Source: a virus
Taxonomy: Duplodnaviria; Heunggongvirae; Uroviricota; Caudoviricetes
Length of the DNA stretch: 21,334 bases
Direction: 5' to 3' (one strand)
Virus record (IMG/VR): IMGVR_UViG_2531839668_000009
Position numbers and translations under genes: made by a program. Positions 8,562-20,337 of this stretch are shown piece after piece. Position 1 is the first letter of the stretch; each line of letters starts with the position of its first letter. The notes under the pieces are model-generated. The model searched no databases and was not told where the DNA came from. It was given only the letters and a program-made list of their open reading frames with translations.

Positions 8562-9039
8562 CGAATTTCTCCCGTGTAGAGGAACAGAGTTAAAAAGCCG
8601 GAAGCGGAATCAAATCACAGGATGACCATCTGCCAGTGGCTGGTCGTAAAAAAAAGGCCGCGCCATGCGCAGCCGAAAATAAAGGGATAACGATGATAGT
8701 TTGAGAAAAACAGAAATAACACTTTTGTGGCAAAGCATGGTGCCGGGTGCCTCCCGGTGAATTCAGTATCAGCACCTGAATCCGCGATTACCCCATATTC
8801 CTTCTTGCTGATTGCCCCACCGCACAGGGGGATTCACCATGCAGAAGTGTTTTTAATAAACAGCAAACAAAAAAATCAAGCATTATGCAGGCTGTTTCTT
8901 TTTATCACCGGCCACAGCAATACCATAATGCCGCAGACCAGCACCCCATCCGCCAGCACCGACATGATTCTGCTGGTGAAATCCACCATCACCACCAGAA
9001 ACAGCAGGAGTGCAGCCACAGTCAGGCGCAGTTTTACCG

Positions 9040-9641: not shown

Positions 9642-9718
9642 TGGTGCGTTGTACTGGGTTCGAACCAGTGACCGATTGCTTAGAAGGCAATTGCTCTGTC
9701 CGGCTGAGCTAAAAACGC
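9642..9718 (-). tRNA. argO: tRNA-Arg (anticodon UCU)
   Basis: Hand-folded cloverleaf on the - strand: acceptor stem with one mismatch, GGTTCGAACC T-arm, anticodon loop CTTCTAA, CCA end encoded. Symbol is by analogy with the Stx-phage ileZ-argN-argO cluster. Confidence 0.75.
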
Positions 9719-9731
9719 AGAATACCGATAA

Positions 9732-9808
9732 TGGACCGCCATCGGAGACTCGAACCCCGCGAAACCAGCTTCGAAGGCTGGCGTTCTATCCCGATGAGCT
9801 AATGGCGG
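9732..9808 (-). tRNA. argN: tRNA-Arg (anticodon UCG)
   Basis: Hand-folded: perfect 7-bp acceptor stem, T-arm CGGGG/TTCGAGT/CTCCG, anticodon loop CTTCGAA, CCA encoded; one mismatch in the D-stem. Confidence 0.7.
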
Positions 9809-9815
9809 TATGTGA

Positions 9816-9891
9816 TGGTGGCCCTTGCTGGATTTGAACCAGCGGCCTGGCGATTATGAGTCGCTCGCTCTCACCACTGAGCTAAAGGGCC
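9816..9891 (-). tRNA. ileZ: tRNA with CAU anticodon (Ile2-lysidine type or Met)
   Basis: Hand-folded: GGCCCTT acceptor, D-arm GCTC/GAGC, anticodon loop CTCATAA, T-arm GGTTCAAATCC, CCA encoded. Ile2 assignment is by analogy with ileZ of Stx-type phages. Confidence 0.7.
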
Positions 9892-13761: not shown

Positions 13762-14043
13762 TCAACCTCCATCAGCCTTTTTGGTGTTAAGTTCATATTT
13801 GTGACGTGAAGGGGACGTGATTCCCGTGTATTCGGGCCATATAAGCTCCCAGTCATTAGGTCTCAATTCTCGTCTTGTAACATGTCCCCCAGTTTCTGCT
13901 TCTATCATCAACGCACGAACAGGAGACACAGGTGAAGTTCCAGATGCCATTTGGGACAAGAAAGACGGAGACACACCAAGATTGGTCGCAAATTTTTTTG
14001 CTTCTCCAGTTTTTAATGATTTGATGAATTCCTTTAGCGTCAT
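13762..14043 (-). CDS. Cro-like HTH regulator (YdaS/DicC type)
   Basis: 93 aa, divergent from the repressor gene, first gene of the rightward operon. Confidence 0.65.
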   Translation of the reverse strand: MTLKEFIKSLKTGEAKKFATNLGVSPSFLSQMASGTSPVSPVRALMIEAETGGHVTRRELRPNDWELIWPEYTGITSPSRHKYELNTKKADGG

Positions 14044-14145: not shown

Positions 14146-14517
14146 ATGGAAACAAAAGAGATTCGGCGTTTACGCCTCAAAGAGTGGTTCAAAGACAGGA
14201 CTTTGCCGCCTAAAGAGAAAAGTTACTTATCTCAGTTAATGAGCGGTAAAGCTACGTTTGGCGAAAAGGCAGCTAGACGTATTGAGCAAACATATGGGAT
14301 GCCTGGGGGGTATCTTGATATGGAACCTGAAGATACAACAGAATCTCCGTCATCAAGAACTATGGCATTAACGCCTAACCAATTGGAATTGTTGCAAATA
14401 TTTAGTGCTTTTCCTGACGCTGAGCAGCAGGAAATCATAAAAGAGCTAAGAAACAAAAAAGAGGCAATGGAAGATCTTGTTGCACGTTGGTTGGCGCGGC
14501 AGGGTCGCCGAGCCTGA
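14146..14517 (+). CDS. Prophage repressor, DicA/RacR type
   Basis: 123 aa; N-terminal HTH and a C-terminal block (LTPNQLELLQIFSAFPDAEQQEIIKELRNKKEAMEDLVARWLA) resembling the DicA C-terminus. Confidence 0.7.
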   Translation: METKEIRRLRLKEWFKDRTLPPKEKSYLSQLMSGKATFGEKAARRIEQTYGMPGGYLDMEPEDTTESPSSRTMALTPNQLELLQIFSAFPDAEQQEIIKELRNKKEAMEDLVARWLARQGRRA

Positions 14518-14547: not shown

Positions 14548-15009
14548 ATGGGCGTACTCGAAATTAGTGCTCTTAGAATTAAGATGCTTCTATTGGCAAA
14601 AGGCTGGAGCCAAGCAGAACTTGCGCGCAGAATTGGTATTGCTCAACAATCCGTCCAAAGGTGGGCTTGTGGCATCTCAAGCCCTACAGCAGCCAACCTA
14701 GATAAACTATCTGATGTGACTGGATTTCCTCAGTATTGGTTTTTCTTACCATTAAATGAAGAAAATAAGGACAGGGCACAGGATATATTAAAAATAACCC
14801 CTACGCAAAAGGAACTACTTCAAACATTTGAGGCATTTCCAGAGGAAGAGCAACAGCAAATGCTTAAAGATATGAAAGAGAAAAAAGAGACAATGGATCG
14901 TATAGTTGCAAAGTGGCTAGCAGCACAACAAAAAGTTCCTAGGCAGGATTACCAGCACTTACAAGACGAGGTTCACCATGAACACGGCCCTTTCACCAAT
15001 GGTTTCTGA
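14548..15009 (+). CDS. Second XRE-family HTH regulator, PaaR2-like, paralogous to the upstream repressor in its C-terminal domain
   Basis: 153 aa; classic XRE HTH (LAKGWSQAELARRIGIAQQSVQRW) and a C-terminal block ITPTQKELLQTFEAFPEEEQQQMLKDMKEKKETMDRIVAKWLA homologous to the upstream gene; 3' end overlaps the antitoxin start. Confidence 0.65.
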   Translation: MGVLEISALRIKMLLLAKGWSQAELARRIGIAQQSVQRWACGISSPTAANLDKLSDVTGFPQYWFFLPLNEENKDRAQDILKITPTQKELLQTFEAFPEEEQQQMLKDMKEKKETMDRIVAKWLAAQQKVPRQDYQHLQDEVHHEHGPFTNGF

Positions 15010-15169
15010 ATTTGAAACCGTCGAGCAAGAAAATAGTTATAACGAATGGCTGCGTGCAAAAGTGGCCGCAAGCCTTGCTGATCCACGTCCAGCCATTCCC
15101 CATGACGAAGTTGAACGCAGAATGGCTGAACGCTTTGCTAACATGCGCAAGGAACGGAGCAAACAGTAA
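14978..15169 (+). CDS. paaA: Antitoxin of the ParE-family toxin, PaaA2-like
   Basis: 63 aa; immediately precedes the toxin with TAA-ATG juxtaposition. Size and sequence agree with my recollection of PaaA2 from the paaR2-paaA2-parE2 modules of O157 prophages. Confidence 0.65.
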   Translation: MNTALSPMVSEFETVEQENSYNEWLRAKVAASLADPRPAIPHDEVERRMAERFANMRKERSKQ

Positions 15170-15457
15170 ATGTTACCGGTTTTATGGCTCGAAAGCGCAG
15201 ATGCCGACCTAGATAATATAACCAGCTATATTGCACGTTTTGACATAGATGCGGCAGAACGTTTGTGGAAACGCTTAAGGACTTGCGTCCTGCCATTATC
15301 TGAACATCCGTATTTATACCCGCCAAGCGACAGAGTGCCTGGTTTGCGTGAAACTGTAGCTCACCCCAATTACATCATTCTGTACCGCGTGACAATTTCA
15401 GGCATTGAAATTGTTAACGTAGTTCACGCCCGCCGACAGTTCCCTGTAACACCTTAA
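15170..15457 (+). CDS. parE: ParE/RelE-superfamily toxin
   Basis: 95 aa; typical RelE/ParE-fold pattern (…YRVTISGIEIVNVVHARRQFP). Confidence 0.75.
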   Translation: MLPVLWLESADADLDNITSYIARFDIDAAERLWKRLRTCVLPLSEHPYLYPPSDRVPGLRETVAHPNYIILYRVTISGIEIVNVVHARRQFPVTP

Positions 15458-15467
15458 TCCCCCTAAG

Positions 15468-15490
15468 CCCCTCTCAAGAGGGGTTATTCT
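15468..15490 (+). terminator. Intrinsic terminator after the toxin gene (CCCCTC-TCAA-GAGGGG then TTATTCTT)
   Basis: GC-rich 6-bp stem with a tetraloop and a T-rich tail, 10 nt after the parE stop. Confidence 0.6.
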
Positions 15491-15512: not shown

Positions 15513-15540
15513 TTGACTGTTTAGTTTATTTTTGTATAAA
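15513..15540 (+). promoter_or_regulatory. Candidate sigma-70 promoter of the dicB-type operon (TTGACT, 16 bp, TATAAA)
   Basis: Near-consensus hexamers just after the TA terminator, followed by an untranslated leader of about 170 nt before the YdfA-like ORF. Confidence 0.4.
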
Positions 15541-15720
15541 CTGATTTTACCAACCCACTCCGCCCCACAGAACGCAGGGCAATACCTAGAGTTACCAGGC
15601 AGTGGTCAGGGGTTAAGTAGCCAGCCCGAGGCGTAAGAACATGACGGCGGGAACACTTTGTATAACAGCGCAGCAGGTTTTTAGTTCCGCGACCCGGCGT
15701 TAAGGGTAAATGAGGTCAAC

Positions 15721-15873
15721 ATGGATATGCTCAATCTTGGCAACAACGAATCTCTGGTATGCGGAGTATTCCCCAACCTGGACGGCACGTTCACCGCGAT
15801 GACGTATACCAGAAGCAAAACGTTTAAAACGGAAGCTGGCGCGCGTCGCTGGTTAGCAAGAAACTCTGACTGA
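15721..15873 (+). CDS. YdfA/YdaF-family small protein
   Basis: 50-aa ORF found by hand (below track cutoff): MDMLNLGNNESLVCGVFPNLDGTFTAMTYTRSKTFKTEAGARRWLARNSD; position matches ydfA downstream of dicA in Qin. Confidence 0.55.
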   Translation: MDMLNLGNNESLVCGVFPNLDGTFTAMTYTRSKTFKTEAGARRWLARNSD

Positions 15874-15971
15874 TGAAGGTTAGTAATTAAAGAGTTCTCC
15901 ACAGGCGAAGTGGAATACGTTCGCCGGACACGGGTAAGCATCCGGCATGCTCTTTAACAATCTGGGTATTC

Positions 15972-16418
15972 CTAACCACAAAGGAATCGCATCAATTTGG
16001 ATTTTGCAGACAGTTTCTCTTGTTGTTCTACGGAGATTCCTATTTTGATCTGGGTTTTTAAGATTGCGATATCTTTAAGCGACGACCAAATATTATCATC
16101 TGTTTTTTCCAGGAGCTTTAACTGCATTTTCAATTCCGAATCGGAATATTTTTCTGCATCATCATAAAGCTGCAGATATTCTGCGGATTTTCTCATTGCG
16201 TTACCTGACTTTTGTCCGAATCCGTAAATCGTTTGAACGGTTGCTATCACAACAATGAGAACTCCAGAAACTTCAGGAATAAATCCACCAATGACAGATG
16301 AACCGAGGATAATACTCACCACTGAGAGAAGTTTATCGAGACGACCAGTCGCTACAGAGAATAGTTGTTCAAGAAAATAACCATATAAAACCCTGTCAAG
16401 AATATCATCCCGGTCCAT
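15972..16418 (-). CDS. Hypothetical membrane protein encoded antisense within the early-left operon (SieB position)
   Basis: 148 aa, ATG with AGGTGA RBS; two hydrophobic helices (LLSVVSIILGSSVIGGFIPEVSGVLIVVIATVQTIYGF) then a charged helical C-terminal region; AT-rich relative to neighbours. Confidence 0.55.
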   Translation of the reverse strand: MDRDDILDRVLYGYFLEQLFSVATGRLDKLLSVVSIILGSSVIGGFIPEVSGVLIVVIATVQTIYGFGQKSGNAMRKSAEYLQLYDDAEKYSDSELKMQLKLLEKTDDNIWSSLKDIAILKTQIKIGISVEQQEKLSAKSKLMRFLCG

Positions 16419-16477
16419 ATATCATCACCTGCTTGTTTGATTGTTGCTGTTCCCCCTCTCCTCTGAAGGAGCTGGAG

Positions 16478-16666
16478 ATGGTTTTGGTCGAATGTTTTTC
16501 TCAGGTATATGTTTCCTGGTATTCGGAATGTCCGACCTGTCCGCAGGCTTACCAGTACCTGAACAATTCTTTTGAACCACCATATAAAACACCTTCCTGT
16601 TGTTGGGGATATCCAGATTATACAGATTTCCTGTCGTTGGGGAACGACGGAAACCACCTCGCCTGA
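16478..16666 (+). CDS. Hypothetical Cys-rich small protein (62 aa)
   Basis: Internal ATG of track ORF 16433..16666 with a GAAGGAG RBS about 8 nt upstream; contains CPTC and SCC motifs; the 3' part overlaps a 16-bp direct repeat. Confidence 0.35.
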   Translation: MVLVECFSQVYVSWYSECPTCPQAYQYLNNSFEPPYKTPSCCWGYPDYTDFLSLGNDGNHLA

Positions 16667-16893
16667 CGTGGTTAAAAGCAGGCACACAACGCGAAAGCGT
16701 ACGGCGAAGCTCTTTCCCTTAGAAGGCTTGTCGTTAGATTTCTTCGAACGTGCGCTTCCGGTTGTGGCAATCCGCGAAATGGCGCGGCGGTAAGTATGGC
16801 GGGGTTATTCCTTCCCCAGTTGAGGACACCGGGTTGTCAGGTTGACCATACGCTTAAGTGACAACCCCGCTACAACGCCCTCTGTTATCAATA

Positions 16894-16951
16894 TTCTGGT
16901 GACATTTGGCGGTATCAGTTTTACTCCGTGACTGCTCTGCCGCCCTTTTTT
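16894..16951 (+). ncRNA. dicF: DicF small regulatory RNA
   Basis: TTCTGGTGACATTTGGCGGTATCAGTTTTACTCCGTGACTGCTCTGCCGCCC followed by a T-run matches the DicF sequence as I recall it, with a terminator hairpin at its 3' end; sits upstream of dicB as in Qin. Confidence 0.8.
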
Positions 16952-17121
16952 AAAAGTGAATTTTGTGATGCGGTGAATGCGGCTCAGCGCACGCGGAACA
17001 GTTAAAACCAAAAACAGTGTTATGGGTGGATTCTCTGTATCCGGCGTTAATTGTTAACTGGTTAACGTCACCTGGAGGCACCAGGCACCGCATCACAAAA
17101 TTCATTGTTGAGGACGCGATA

Positions 17122-17310
17122 ATGGAAAAGTTATCATGTAATGCCAGCACGTCTGAACTTCGTTTCGAAATTGGCGTTATCACTGGAGACAAAACATTTA
17201 TTGAAGACGCCATTAAGCAGAGAAAACTCGAGCAGGACCTGTTAAATGAAGTATGCATTCCTTCAATGCTGGCTCGTCTGGACCTGCTGCAAAAAGGATA
17301 TAAACAATGA
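17122..17310 (+). CDS. dicB: DicB cell-division inhibitor
   Basis: 62 aa with a GAGGA RBS; shares FEIGV, EDAI and SMLARL blocks with K-12 DicB as recalled; track ORF 17017..17310 starts further upstream but the internal ATG is preferred. Confidence 0.8.
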   Translation: MEKLSCNASTSELRFEIGVITGDKTFIEDAIKQRKLEQDLLNEVCIPSMLARLDLLQKGYKQ

Positions 17311-17498
17311 ATACAACATTTGCACTCGTTCTGACAGTTTATCTTGTTTCCGGCGAATCTCTTGAGCTGGTGACTGGCTTATACGGTTCAATGAAAGAAT
17401 GCATGGCTGCAGCAGCAGAACAAAAAATTCCCGGTAACTGTTATCCGGTAGATAAAACTACTCACACTAATAATAACGAAATACCGGCAGGACTTTAA
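17307..17498 (+). CDS. ydfD: YdfD-like small membrane protein
   Basis: 63 aa, start overlaps the dicB stop; hydrophobic N-terminus (MNTTFALVLTVYLVSG). Confidence 0.65.
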   Translation: MNTTFALVLTVYLVSGESLELVTGLYGSMKECMAAAAEQKIPGNCYPVDKTTHTNNNEIPAGL

Positions 17499-17591: not shown

Positions 17592-20027
17592 ATGAGTAAA
17601 GTCTTTATTTGCGCCGCCATTCCGGACGAACAGGCAATAAAAGAAGAGGGCGCAGTTGCTGTAGCCACTGCCATTGAAGCCGGTGATGAACGCCGCGCCC
17701 GTGCCAAATTTACCTGGCAATTCCTGGAGCAATATCCTGCTGCTCAGGACTGCGCTTATAAATTTCTTGTCTGCGAAGATAAACCCGGCATGCCCCGCCC
17801 TGCTATCGACTCCTGGGATACCGAATATATGCAGGAAAACCGCTGGGATGAGGAATCCGCTTCCTTTATTCCGGTCGAACCAGAATCCGATCCTATTAAC
17901 GTCAATTTTGACAAGCTGTCCCTTGAAGTACAGAACGCGGTCCTGGTTAAGTTCGGTACATGTGAAAACATCACCGTTGATATGGCGATTGACGCGCAGG
18001 AATTACTGCAAGAAGACGTGGCTACCTTTGACGGACATATCGTTGAAGCACTGATGAAAACGCCTGAAATTAACGCTATGTATCCGGAACGCAAACTGTT
18101 CGCTATCGGATGGGTTAAACACAAATGTAAGCCGGGTACCAAATGGCCCGAAATTCAGGCTGAATTACGTAACTGGAAAAAACGGCAGGACGCAGAGCGC
18201 AAAGAGACTGGAAAATACACGTCTGTTGTTGATCTTGCCCGCGCCAAAGCCAACCGACAGCACACTGAAAACCCAGCAGAAAAAATCCCTCCTGTAACTG
18301 CCGCCATTCATCGCGAATACAAGCAGACATGGAAAACCCTGGACAGGGAGCTGGCCTACTATCTCTGGCCTGGTGATGCGGATGCCGGAAACATTGACGG
18401 CAGCATCCTTCGCTGGGCTAAAAATGAAGTTATCGCCAGAGATCGCGAAGACTGGAAGCGCATCTCCGCATCAATGCGCAAACAACCTGATGCGCTTCGC
18501 TACAGCCGCCAGACTATTTTTGGCCTTGTCCGTGAACGTCCGATCGACATTCACAAAGACCCTGTGGCACTGAACAAATACATTACTGAATACCTGACTA
18601 CAAAGGGCGTGTTTGAAGATGAAGGAAGAAATCAGAGCGCAACTGATACTCTCTCGTCGCCAGTACCAGAAACTGATGCAGTGGAAACGGCAATTCCGGA
18701 CAACGAAAAAACCGAATGCAAAGTGGAAGTCGAACCATCTGTAGAGCGTGAGGGGCCGTTCTACTTCCTCTTCACCGACAAGGATGGCGAAAAATACGGT
18801 CGCGCAAACAAACTTTCTGGTCTGGACAAGGCGCTGGCTGCCGGGGCTACTGAAATCACGAAAGAAGAATATCTTGCCCGCAAAAACGGAACATACACGG
18901 ACTTACCGCAAAATGTGGATACCGCTGAAGATTCCGTACAACCGGAGCCGGTAAAAGTTACCGCTGACGAAGTAAACAAAATTATGCAGGCAGCCAATAT
19001 CAGCCAGCCTGACGCCGATAAATTGCTTGCTGCATCACGTGGTGAATTTGTTGAAGGGATTAGCGATCCGAATGATCCGAAATGGGTGAAGGGGATTGAA
19101 ACCTGCGATTCTGTGAACCAGAACCAGTCAGAAACGGAACAGAACGACCAAAAAGCGGAACAAAACAGCCCAAATGCGTTACAAGACGAGCCAGAAACGA
19201 AACAATCCGAACCAGTAGCGCAACAGGAAGAGGAAAAAGTCTGTACCGCCTGCGGTCAGAGTGGTGGCGGCAACTGCCCTGATTGTGGCGCGGTGATGGG
19301 CGACGCAACCTGCCAGGAAACATTCGATGAAGAAAATCAGGCTGAAGCTCAGGAGGAAATGGAAGGCAGTGGCGGCGATCACTACCACACCACAGATAAT
19401 GAAAGTGGCGAGACAGCAAATCCCTTAATTAAGGTGAACGGTCATCGTGAAATTACATCCACCAGCAGGTTGTGGCACCATCTGATGATTGACCTTGAAA
19501 CAATGGGAAAAAATCCTGATGCCCCGATTATCTCAATAGGTGCAATATTTTTCGATCCGCAAACCGGAGAGATGGGGCCAGAATTCAGCAAAACTATCGA
19601 TCTGGAAACTGCTGGCGGAGTCATTGATCGGGACACCATTAAGTGGTGGCTGAAACAGTCACGCGAAGCGCAATCCGCCATTCTTACCGATGAAATCCCG
19701 TTAGATGATGCACTGCTGCAATTACGGGAATTTATCGACGAAAACTCCGGTGAATTTTTTGTTCAGGTCTGGGGTAACGGTGCAACTTTCGACAACGTGA
19801 TTTTACGCCGTTCATATGAACGGCAGGGGATCCCCTGCCCATGTCGTTACACCAATGATCGCGATGTAAGAACGATGGTTGCTCTGGGACTGGTGATGGA
19901 TTTCGACGCAAGAACGACTATTCCATTCGAAGGTGAACGCCATAACGCTCTGAACGATGCACGTTACCAGGCGAAATACGTTTCAGCCATCTGGCAAAAA
20001 ATGCTCCCGAGTCAGGCTGATTTTTAA
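17592..20027 (+). CDS. Large early-operon protein with C-terminal DEDDh (DnaQ/Rv2179c-like) 3'-5' exonuclease domain (YdfE-like)
   Basis: 811 aa. C-terminal about 180 aa carry Exo I (MIDLETMG), Exo II (VWGNGATFDNVIL) and Exo III (HNALNDARYQAKY) motifs. Upstream are an acidic low-complexity linker and a Cys4 motif (CTACGQSGGGNCPDCG). The N-terminal 550 aa have no motif I recognise. Confidence 0.7.
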   Translation: MSKVFICAAIPDEQAIKEEGAVAVATAIEAGDERRARAKFTWQFLEQYPAAQDCAYKFLVCEDKPGMPRPAIDSWDTEYMQENRWDEESASFIPVEPESDPINVNFDKLSLEVQNAVLVKFGTCENITVDMAIDAQELLQEDVATFDGHIVEALMKTPEINAMYPERKLFAIGWVKHKCKPGTKWPEIQAELRNWKKRQDAERKETGKYTSVVDLARAKANRQHTENPAEKIPPVTAAIHREYKQTWKTLDRELAYYLWPGDADAGNIDGSILRWAKNEVIARDREDWKRISASMRKQPDALRYSRQTIFGLVRERPIDIHKDPVALNKYITEYLTTKGVFEDEGRNQSATDTLSSPVPETDAVETAIPDNEKTECKVEVEPSVEREGPFYFLFTDKDGEKYGRANKLSGLDKALAAGATEITKEEYLARKNGTYTDLPQNVDTAEDSVQPEPVKVTADEVNKIMQAANISQPDADKLLAASRGEFVEGISDPNDPKWVKGIETCDSVNQNQSETEQNDQKAEQNSPNALQDEPETKQSEPVAQQEEEKVCTACGQSGGGNCPDCGAVMGDATCQETFDEENQAEAQEEMEGSGGDHYHTTDNESGETANPLIKVNGHREITSTSRLWHHLMIDLETMGKNPDAPIISIGAIFFDPQTGEMGPEFSKTIDLETAGGVIDRDTIKWWLKQSREAQSAILTDEIPLDDALLQLREFIDENSGEFFVQVWGNGATFDNVILRRSYERQGIPCPCRYTNDRDVRTMVALGLVMDFDARTTIPFEGERHNALNDARYQAKYVSAIWQKMLPSQADF

Positions 20028-20094: not shown

Positions 20095-20337
20095 ATGTAC
20101 GAATTAACTCTATCTCCAGCAGAGATTAAAGAGATCACGAAATACGAGCGATACACAAAACAGCAACACCAGTTAAGACTGCACGGCATCCCATTTGTAA
20201 TCGGCCCTAAAAACGAACCCATAGTTCTCCGCAGGGATATTCCACACGGTCTGACAACGATGCCAAAAACATCTGAACTGGTTTCTGCTGAACCCGATTT
20301 TGAGGCGCTGAACAATGGGAAGACCAAGAAAAAATAA
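20095..20337 (+). CDS. xis: Excisionase (Xis-like)
   Basis: 80-aa internal ATG of track ORF 19957..20337 (MYELTLSP...), basic C-terminus, 3' end overlapping the integrase start as in lambda xis-int. Confidence 0.5.
   Translation: MYELTLSPAEIKEITKYERYTKQQHQLRLHGIPFVIGPKNEPIVLRRDIPHGLTTMPKTSELVSAEPDFEALNNGKTKKK

Follow-up and report, generated by a model that had tools for sequence, protein, structure and literature searches.

The dicBF operon of the Qin prophage of Escherichia coli K-12 (ydfABC-dicF-dicB-ydfDE-intQ) comprises the small RNA gene dicF and the protein genes dicB and ydfD. DicF, DicB and YdfD belong to one of the longest-known prophage modules, which is nearly ubiquitous in E. 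coli and is able to halt the division of its host. In K-12, DicF exists as species of 190 and 53 nucleotides (nt) that depend on RNase III and RNase E. The 190-nt precursor is made by RNase III, RNase E generates the 5' end of the shorter species, and no internal dicF promoter was found (10.1101/2023.04.14.536235). According to a review of 3'-derived small RNAs, RNase III processing of the full-length RNA yields a 72-nt DicF (PMC9438474). Compensatory mutations have established that the 3' region of K-12 DicF pairs with the ribosome-binding site of ftsZ and its 5' end with xylR (PMC5069750). DicB also provides protection from phages (PMC6832061), and the YdfD protein of K-12 bears the name "lysis protein" in RefSeq. 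The same cassette is carried by lambdoid prophages of enterohaemorrhagic and enteropathogenic E. coli (EHEC and EPEC) and by the viable phages Tritos and mEp460, where it lies in the early-left operon ahead of the exonuclease, excisionase (xis) and integrase (int) genes. In Tritos the order is CI, ydfABC, DicF, dicB, ydfD, exonuclease, xis and int, and a DicF feature is annotated.

The present study concerns a dicF-dicB-ydfD segment found in a 21,334-nt stretch of Caudoviricetes DNA (IMG/VR record IMGVR_UViG_2531839668_000009), the whole of which is called the window below. It is very probably a bona fide segment of a lambdoid early-left ("dicBF") operon, carried at serT/yccA by a degraded prophage in E. 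coli of the O157:H16 type and working as in K-12 Qin. A DicA-like repressor gene, a candidate promoter, ydfA, dicF, dicB, ydfD, the exonuclease gene, xis and int follow one another (Table 1), with the same order and orientation relative to the repressor as in K-12. The precursor part of dicF, dicF itself and the dicF-dicB spacer are ~98-99% identical to their K-12 counterparts, and ydfA, dicB and ydfD are homologous. K-12 possesses ydfB and ydfC where the window has an insert with an antisense open reading frame (ORF), and the immunity region of the window differs from that of Qin, a RelB/RelE pair being present in addition. In the window the genes for the exonuclease, Xis and Int are intact; in K-12 they are pseudogenes or disrupted by IS2. 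Family membership, sequence identity, conserved RNA structure and context are established for this segment, and the span of 16894-17498 assigned to it by a first-pass annotation of the sequence proved exact to the base.

The DicF RNA and its pairing regions

A scan of the whole window with the Rfam model of DicF (RF00039) gave a match at 16894-16945 (+) that covers model positions 1-52 of 52 with 77.0 bits (E 9.5e-16; gathering threshold 48 bits), which is far beyond chance. Aligned with the dicF of K-12 strain MG1655 (NC_000913 1649382-1649434), the 53-nt RNA is identical at 51 positions. Nucleotides 13-53 are unchanged, and the only two differences, U to A at nt 1 and G to A at nt 12, are both in the 5' single-stranded part (nt 1-14). 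The terminator hairpin, predicted by both the Rfam structure and the minimum free energy fold, occupies 16908-16944, and the U-tract that follows it consists of six T residues in the window and five in K-12. The near-exact DicF with its terminator, as described in the first-pass annotation, is confirmed by these data. The gene is preceded by ydfA and lies 177 nt upstream of dicB.

The first-pass annotation had regarded mutations in the ftsZ-pairing region as capable of overturning the assignment. None were found, as the ftsZ-pairing 3' region lies within nt 13-53 and is hence letter-for-letter that of K-12. The duplex of DicF with the ftsZ leader predicted by RNAduplex has an energy of -36.6 kcal/mol for the window allele versus -38.5 kcal/mol for K-12, and is essentially unchanged according to this model. 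By analogy with K-12, Hfq-dependent repression of FtsZ and filamentation would be expected of this allele.

The pairing with xylR is predicted to be altered. Nucleotides 5-17 of the K-12-type DicF (G12) form a perfect 13-bp duplex with codons 3-7 of xylR. The substitution G12A, at window position 16904, falls in the centre of this duplex and makes an A-C mismatch, and the predicted energy changes from -20.3 kcal/mol (G12) to -14.5 kcal/mol (A12). It seems that the A12 allele probably keeps the control of ftsZ and weakens that of xylR. How often the allele occurs was assessed in 131 dicF instances, taken from IMG/VR viral contigs and from contigs representing one genome per species. A12 recurs in nature (16 of the 131) and is the consensus letter of the Rfam DicF model; the exact 59-mer with A1 and A12 occurs in four instances, the window and the reference genome included. 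Compared with the EHEC and EPEC copies, the window has this rarer A1/A12 dicF allele as well as a rare DicB allele.

Conservation is concentrated in the non-coding part of the segment. In an alignment of 104 distinct 900-nt regions around dicF, identity to the window is 92-99% across ~16753-17112 and 45-80% outside this block on both sides, the interiors of dicB and ydfD included. The left edge at ~16753 fits the 5' end of the 190-nt precursor (16945 - 189 = 16756), and the right edge is the ribosome-binding site of dicB. The stretch of the precursor upstream of DicF is ~99% identical to K-12. Of 5426 complete E. coli genomes, 4719 (about 87%) contain a 372-nt non-coding block, with a median of two copies and a maximum of 10 per genome, and the block also occurs in 59 phage records, viable phages among them. 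With such a frequency in E. coli genomes, the cassette is to be considered ordinary.

Other occurrences of dicF-like sequences deserve mention. A contig of Salmonella enterica (CP191473, locus L006) contains at ~3640-3700 a dicF-like sequence with another 5' end and a conserved 3' hairpin, directly followed by an ORF with no STnc100-like leader between them (this leader type is considered below). Contigs of metagenome-assembled genomes named Veillonella parvula and Collinsella sp. (loci L008 and L010) carry the E. coli-type dicF and leader; most likely, this is enterobacterial prophage DNA mis-binned into Firmicutes and Actinobacteria genomes. In Aeromonas phage AP1 (MT713136.1), positions 249906-250149, near the end of the 254-kb jumbo-phage record and with no annotation there, match window positions 16883-17129 (dicF and leader) at 96.8%. 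This match could be a contamination, an assembly artefact or a recent transfer.

dicB, ydfD and the early-left operon

The first-pass annotation had placed homologues of dicB and ydfD downstream of dicF, and both are full-length members of the respective Pfam families. The DicB model (PF05358) matches over positions 1-62 of 62 with 131.8 bits against a cut-off of 27, and the protein keeps all 24 residues that are invariant among six DicB allele types. The allele type of the window is divergent and rare in the sample. A Shine-Dalgarno sequence, GAGGA, is located at 17110-17114 ahead of dicB, and a near-identical gene of E. coli O157:H16 strain 98-3133 was named dicB by the Prokaryotic Genome Annotation Pipeline (PGAP). 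The ydfD product matches DUF1482 (PF07358) with 69.2 bits against a cut-off of 25 and also matches phrog_1092; its N-terminus, read from the sequence, is hydrophobic (MNTTFALVLTVYLV). The start codon of ydfD overlaps the stop codon of dicB (ATGA), as in K-12. The MinC- and ZipA-dependent inhibition of division and the inhibition of ManYZ by DicB, and the lysis activity of YdfD, may be ascribed to the window alleles only by analogy, since these are distant from the K-12 proteins.

The Cro/DicC-like gene diverges from two tandem regulator genes on the + strand, 14146-14517 and 14548-15009. The product of the latter is 31% identical to K-12 DicA over 113 aa (E 2e-15) and is presumed, by analogy, to repress the promoter at 15513. 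The gene at 14146-14517 encodes its paralogue (36% identity over the C-terminal ~75 residues; phrog_5736), in which no match to the helix-turn-helix (HTH) models of Pfam was found; the presence of two repressor paralogues within one immunity region is unusual. A toxin-antitoxin pair of the RelB / RelE-ParE type (14978-15457, +) separates the repressor genes from the pL-like promoter; after it, at 15470-15483, comes a small hairpin whose tail is rich in T.

The module had been proposed in the first-pass annotation to be driven from a promoter at 15513-15540 read as TTGACT-16-TATAAA. In the present analysis, the candidate reads TTGACT-18-TAAACT and extends to 15542, with 9 of 12 positions matching the sigma-70 hexamers. 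It lies between the repressor side and ydfA, in the position of K-12 dicBp. The same two hexamers with the same spacing recur at 14106-14077 (-), upstream of the cro-like gene. A palindrome, AGTTTAT-N6-ATAAACT (15523-15542), expected 0.06 times by chance, overlaps the -10 hexamer of the candidate, and AGTTTAT/ATAAACT inverted repeats are found at both promoters. Homology to EHEC prophages of other immunity types begins at 15548-15553, about +1. A promoter and operator forming part of the immunity module would leave a mosaic boundary of this kind, and this supports the promoter. Its position, the mosaic boundary and the likeness to the divergent cro-side promoter make the candidate plausible, and to this extent the proposal of the first-pass annotation stands.

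Several points, besides the predicted weakening of the xylR pairing, weigh against the conclusion that this copy works as in K-12. Promoter matches of such quality are as frequent in the region as expected by chance (7 found versus 6.9 expected in the scan), so that the match alone proves nothing, and the spacing of the inverted repeat arms differs between the two promoters. DicB and YdfD are only 55% and 63% identical to the K-12 proteins, which are the ones that were tested. The main uncertainty for this copy concerns the stretch between the promoter and dicF. A 729-nt insert (15945-16674), delimited by BLAST breakpoints against K-12, occupies the position of ydfB and ydfC, both absent from this stretch of the window, and its antisense ORF encodes a 148-aa product with a hydrophobic central stretch. 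Such an insert may lower transcription into dicF. It is present in three of the 112 dicF loci with enough upstream sequence, and two weak terminator-like hairpins on the + strand lie within it (16133-16147 and 16170-16186).

These features suggest an alternative in which the cassette is uncoupled from its promoter. Transcription from 15513 would terminate within the insert, or collide with transcription of the convergent 148-aa ORF, and DicF and DicB would be expressed poorly or from another start. The replacement of ydfB and ydfC, the convergent ORF, the two hairpins and the rarity of the arrangement speak for this alternative. It is nevertheless improbable, as the terminator-like sites are weak and the scan found them no more often than chance would give (4 versus 4.3 expected), and the insert-bearing arrangement is 99-100% conserved in several EHEC and EPEC lineages. 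Moreover, no promoter-like site was detected at the scan threshold on the + strand of 16419-16893 from which dicF could be transcribed independently, consistent with K-12. The scan revealed no promoter for the antisense ORF either. A defence role for this ORF was considered and dropped, because there was no PADLOC or Pfam match and phrog_6315 was its only assignment. Upstream of the insert, ydfA is 86% identical to K-12 ydfA at the nucleotide level and precedes dicF in 106 of the 112 loci.

Under the preferred reading, that of an operon working as in K-12 Qin, the expression, processing sites and activities of these alleles are drawn by homology to Qin, and the following course can be proposed. 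Relief of the DicA-like repressor would allow transcription to start at the pL-like promoter near 15513-15542 and to proceed through ydfA. RNase III would cut the transcript near 16756, producing the 190-nt precursor, and RNase E would cut near 16892/16893, producing DicF's 5' end. The intrinsic terminator (16908-16951) would define the 53-nt species. The read-through RNA would be cut by RNase III in the leader helix (within 16954-17105) to give the 72-nt DicF and the dicB-ydfD mRNA. With Hfq, the unchanged 3' region of DicF would bind the ribosome-binding site of ftsZ and block the synthesis of FtsZ. DicB, acting with MinC and via ZipA, would block the assembly of the Z-ring, and YdfD would promote lysis.

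Table 1. Features of the early-left region of the window, with the evidence used for their assignment
Feature	Position	Strand	Evidence
Cro/DicC-like regulator	13762..14043	-	Pfam YdaS_toxin/HTH, 38.1 bits; phrog_35, transcriptional repressor
DicA-like (CI-like) HTH repressor	14548..15009	+	Pfam HTH_3
Candidate early-left (dicBp/pL-like) promoter	15513..15542	+	Promoter scan
ydfA homologue, 50 aa, DUF1391, first operon gene	15721..15873	+	Pfam PF07151, 98.5 bits
Antisense ORF, 148 aa	15972..16418	-	phrog_6315, unknown function
Upstream part of the putative 190-nt DicF precursor	16756..16892	+	K-12 processing data and ~99% identity
DicF small RNA, 53 nt	16893..16945	+	Rfam RF00039 and K-12 alignment
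U-tract (T6) belonging to the intrinsic terminator of DicF; 3' end of the 53-nt RNA	16946..16951	+	Read from sequence
Structured dicF-dicB spacer (dicB leader), 152 nt	16954..17105	+	Fold and covariance models
dicB, 62 codons, cell-division inhibitor family	17122..17310	+	Pfam PF05358
ydfD homologue, 63 codons, DUF1482	17307..17498	+	Pfam PF07358
Exonuclease, 811 aa, Rv2179c-like 3'-5' exonuclease domain at the C-terminus	17592..20027	+	Pfam PF16473, 216 bits; phrog_2082
Excisionase, 80 aa, DUF4224-type	20095..20337	+	phrog_1266, 83 bits; PGAP DUF4224
Tyrosine integrase, 339 aa	20315..21334	+	Pfam Phage_integrase

The dicF-dicB spacer and its likeness to STnc100

The spacer between dicF and dicB folds into a closing helix of 19-21 bp (16954-16976 with 17085-17105) that encloses three conserved hairpins and one short variable hairpin. 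The fold of DicF together with the spacer has a z-score of -5.1 against shuffles. The end of the 72-nt DicF, 19 nt past the end of the 53-nt species, would correspond to ~16964-16966 and falls in the 5' arm of the closing helix. Most likely, therefore, this helix is the known RNase III substrate from which the 72-nt DicF would arise.

The sole other Rfam match in the dicF region was that of the spacer to STnc100 (RF02076), with 37.4 bits (E 5e-6), below the gathering threshold of 47. It covers model positions 21-154 of 206 and ends without the 3' terminator part of STnc100 (~170-206); the Shine-Dalgarno sequence and the start codon of dicB follow directly. Reports describe the STnc100 family as a relative of PasD, found near esterase genes and 75 nt downstream of stx2. 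The window also contains, in the late region, a bona fide STnc100 copy (RF02076, 100.8 bits) at 8699-8871 (-), just upstream of the gene of a SASA/NanS-p-type esterase. The inner terminator stem that the Rfam model contains is missing from this copy. When a covariance model (R1) was trained on 43 distinct dicF-linked spacer copies only, it matched this copy at 8735-8842 (-) with 42.3 bits (E 1.7e-10).

Besides these reciprocal matches, the spacer and STnc100/PasD have in common the closing helix, the order of the hairpins and two motifs, GGUGAAU and UCACCNGGAGGCACCNGGCACC, and their stems demonstrate compensatory differences, such as CCUGG/CCAGG versus CCGGG/CCCGG. The spacer differs in its score below the threshold and in its location: it belongs to the early-left operon, not the late one, and is flanked by a terminator and the gene of a division inhibitor. 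By this comparison of sequences and models, the spacer appears to be a structural relative of the prophage small RNA family STnc100/PasD. A description of this resemblance was not found in the literature open to search.

Within the dicF-linked copies, 99.1% of the cells of the alignment are paired. The changes in the stems mostly preserve pairing through wobble, with C-G, U-G and U-A found at one pair, for example, and fixed G-U pairs make the structure strand-specific. This indicates selection on the spacer RNA. In the same copies, both partners have changed at only two pairs, and by the pair-count measures the copies do no better than shuffles. Covariation within these copies is too weak alone, and the structural case rests on the comparison between classes.

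The spacer might be merely an RNase III hairpin, its likeness to STnc100 being due to the long stem and a chance motif. This is possible, if doubtful. The scarcity of double changes, the score below the gathering threshold and the ~38 bits that the long stem alone obtains with R1 on the antisense strand are in its favour. However, the match of R1 to STnc100 keeps its meaning despite the stem score, since it extends over the internal hairpins and the two motifs as well. The stem differences between the classes are compensatory, and the element also precedes kil in a Shiga toxin (Stx) phage, where STnc100 is the sole Rfam match.

In the latter case, Shigella phage 75/02 Stx (locus L133, ~4040-4290), a terminator hairpin is likewise followed by this leader, and the gene of a small division inhibitor comes directly after it at the corresponding place of the operon; its product is a Kil-like protein of 79 aa rather than DicB. 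The hairpin, which stands where dicF would be, has the same base as that of DicF (UUUGGCGG...CCGCCCUUUUU) and a different loop, and no match to the Rfam DicF model was found there. It may be a small RNA on the DicF scaffold with another seed. The gene that follows the leader varies between loci: DicB proteins of at least four allele types, Kil-like proteins and other products are encoded there. The put-type antiterminator of phage HK022 was considered as a relative of the leader and rejected: the best R1 match on the HK022 genome had 12.8 bits (E 0.06), and Rfam gave none at E<0.1.

A broader reading of the structural relationship between the spacer and STnc100/PasD can be suggested only tentatively. 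The spacer would be an unrecognised early-operon branch of STnc100/PasD, a portable post-terminator leader governing the processing and translation of the genes downstream, and DicF alleles of the A12 type would retune the set of targets. If this is the case, a portable leader stands ahead of host-targeting genes, namely dicB in the window, kil in Stx phages and the NanS-p esterase in the late operon, and the A12-type alleles keep ftsZ and weaken xylR.

The prophage and its recombination genes

The whole window is 99.98% identical over 21.3 kb to the chromosome of strain 98-3133, and four complete E. coli genomes, that of 98-3133 being the first, have the 2.3 kb around dicF-dicB-ydfD at 100% identity. 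As annotated by PGAP, the near-identical prophage of 98-3133 is lambdoid and adjoins yccA (serT/yccA locus). Its late side, on one strand, includes an NleB effector, tail-fibre fragments, a PerC-family regulator, a lysis cassette and the SASA (NanS-p type) esterase. Three tRNAs, a truncated Q, replication genes and the immunity region follow, and after the latter come ydfA, dicB, the DUF1482 gene, the 3'-5' exonuclease, the DUF4224 excisionase and the integrase. No annotation was given to dicF by PGAP in this stretch. In the window, the tRNA cluster (9642-9891, -) has the anticodons CAT (tRNA-Ile according to PGAP), TCG (Arg) and TCT (Arg) and is situated downstream of the truncated Q, as in the late regions of Stx-phage-like elements.

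The NleB type III effector (~137-1117, -) and the regulator of the PerC/Pch family (3536-3850, -) belong to the same element as dicF. According to reviews, DicF activates the translation of pchA in EHEC, and its copies are tied to virulence regulation. A pairing of DicF with the PerC/Pch leader in the window was considered. Its RNAduplex energy ranked 155th among 404 background windows, and the idea was dropped since this rank is uninformative.

The recombination genes form the end of the operon. The exonuclease gene corresponds to ydfE, a pseudogene in K-12, and is intact here, with homology to K-12 running up to the IS2 insertion. The first-pass annotation had described int and xis as apparently intact, and both are indeed full-length ORFs. 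The integrase aligns end to end (1-319) with λ Int (E 5.6e-20), with the catalytic residues R212, K235, H308 and H333 of the latter conserved and a tyrosine at the place expected for Y342. The position of another λ catalytic residue, R311, is taken by lysine in the motif FHDIKAKG. Relatives at 58% identity have FHDLKAKG with the same lysine, so that the substitution characterises the clade rather than being a newly acquired defect. The window ends at the stop codon of the integrase gene, with the attachment sites outside it; in the 98-3133 chromosome, a tRNA 3' fragment is located just past the integrase.

The Q, DUF968 and tail-fibre genes are flagged as incomplete in the PGAP annotation of the 98-3133 record, no head or tail-shaft genes are annotated in the prophage stretch, and an IS66 element abuts its left end. 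This indicates a defective prophage with an intact early-left arm. The intactness assigned by the first-pass annotation thus holds for the dicF-dicB-ydfD module and not for the prophage.

The decay of the prophage raises the alternative that the segment is a relic, with the RNA maintained by recombination between prophages only and the dicB and ydfD alleles deprived of the K-12 activities. The distance of both proteins from K-12 and the rarity of the DicB allele agree with such a view. It is, however, highly improbable. Both ORFs keep their exact length, the ATGA overlap and the Shine-Dalgarno sequence, the two proteins are far above the Pfam thresholds, and DicB retains every invariant position. 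In addition, the wobble-preserving changes and strand-specific G-U pairs of the leader point to selection on the RNA, and viable phages carry the same module.

It seems that the identification of a further dicF-dicB-ydfD module as such matters little. It has some value for annotation, as dicF was left unannotated by PGAP and the element also carries NleB and PerC/Pch genes. The side leads concern the restraint of toxic prophage genes: a non-coding block whose conservation exceeds that of the genes served by it, a leader common to kil loci that would be related to STnc100, and a DicF allele predicted to lose the pairing with xylR. The lead worth recording is the STnc100-like leader of dicB and kil, together with the allele-specific pairing of DicF with xylR.

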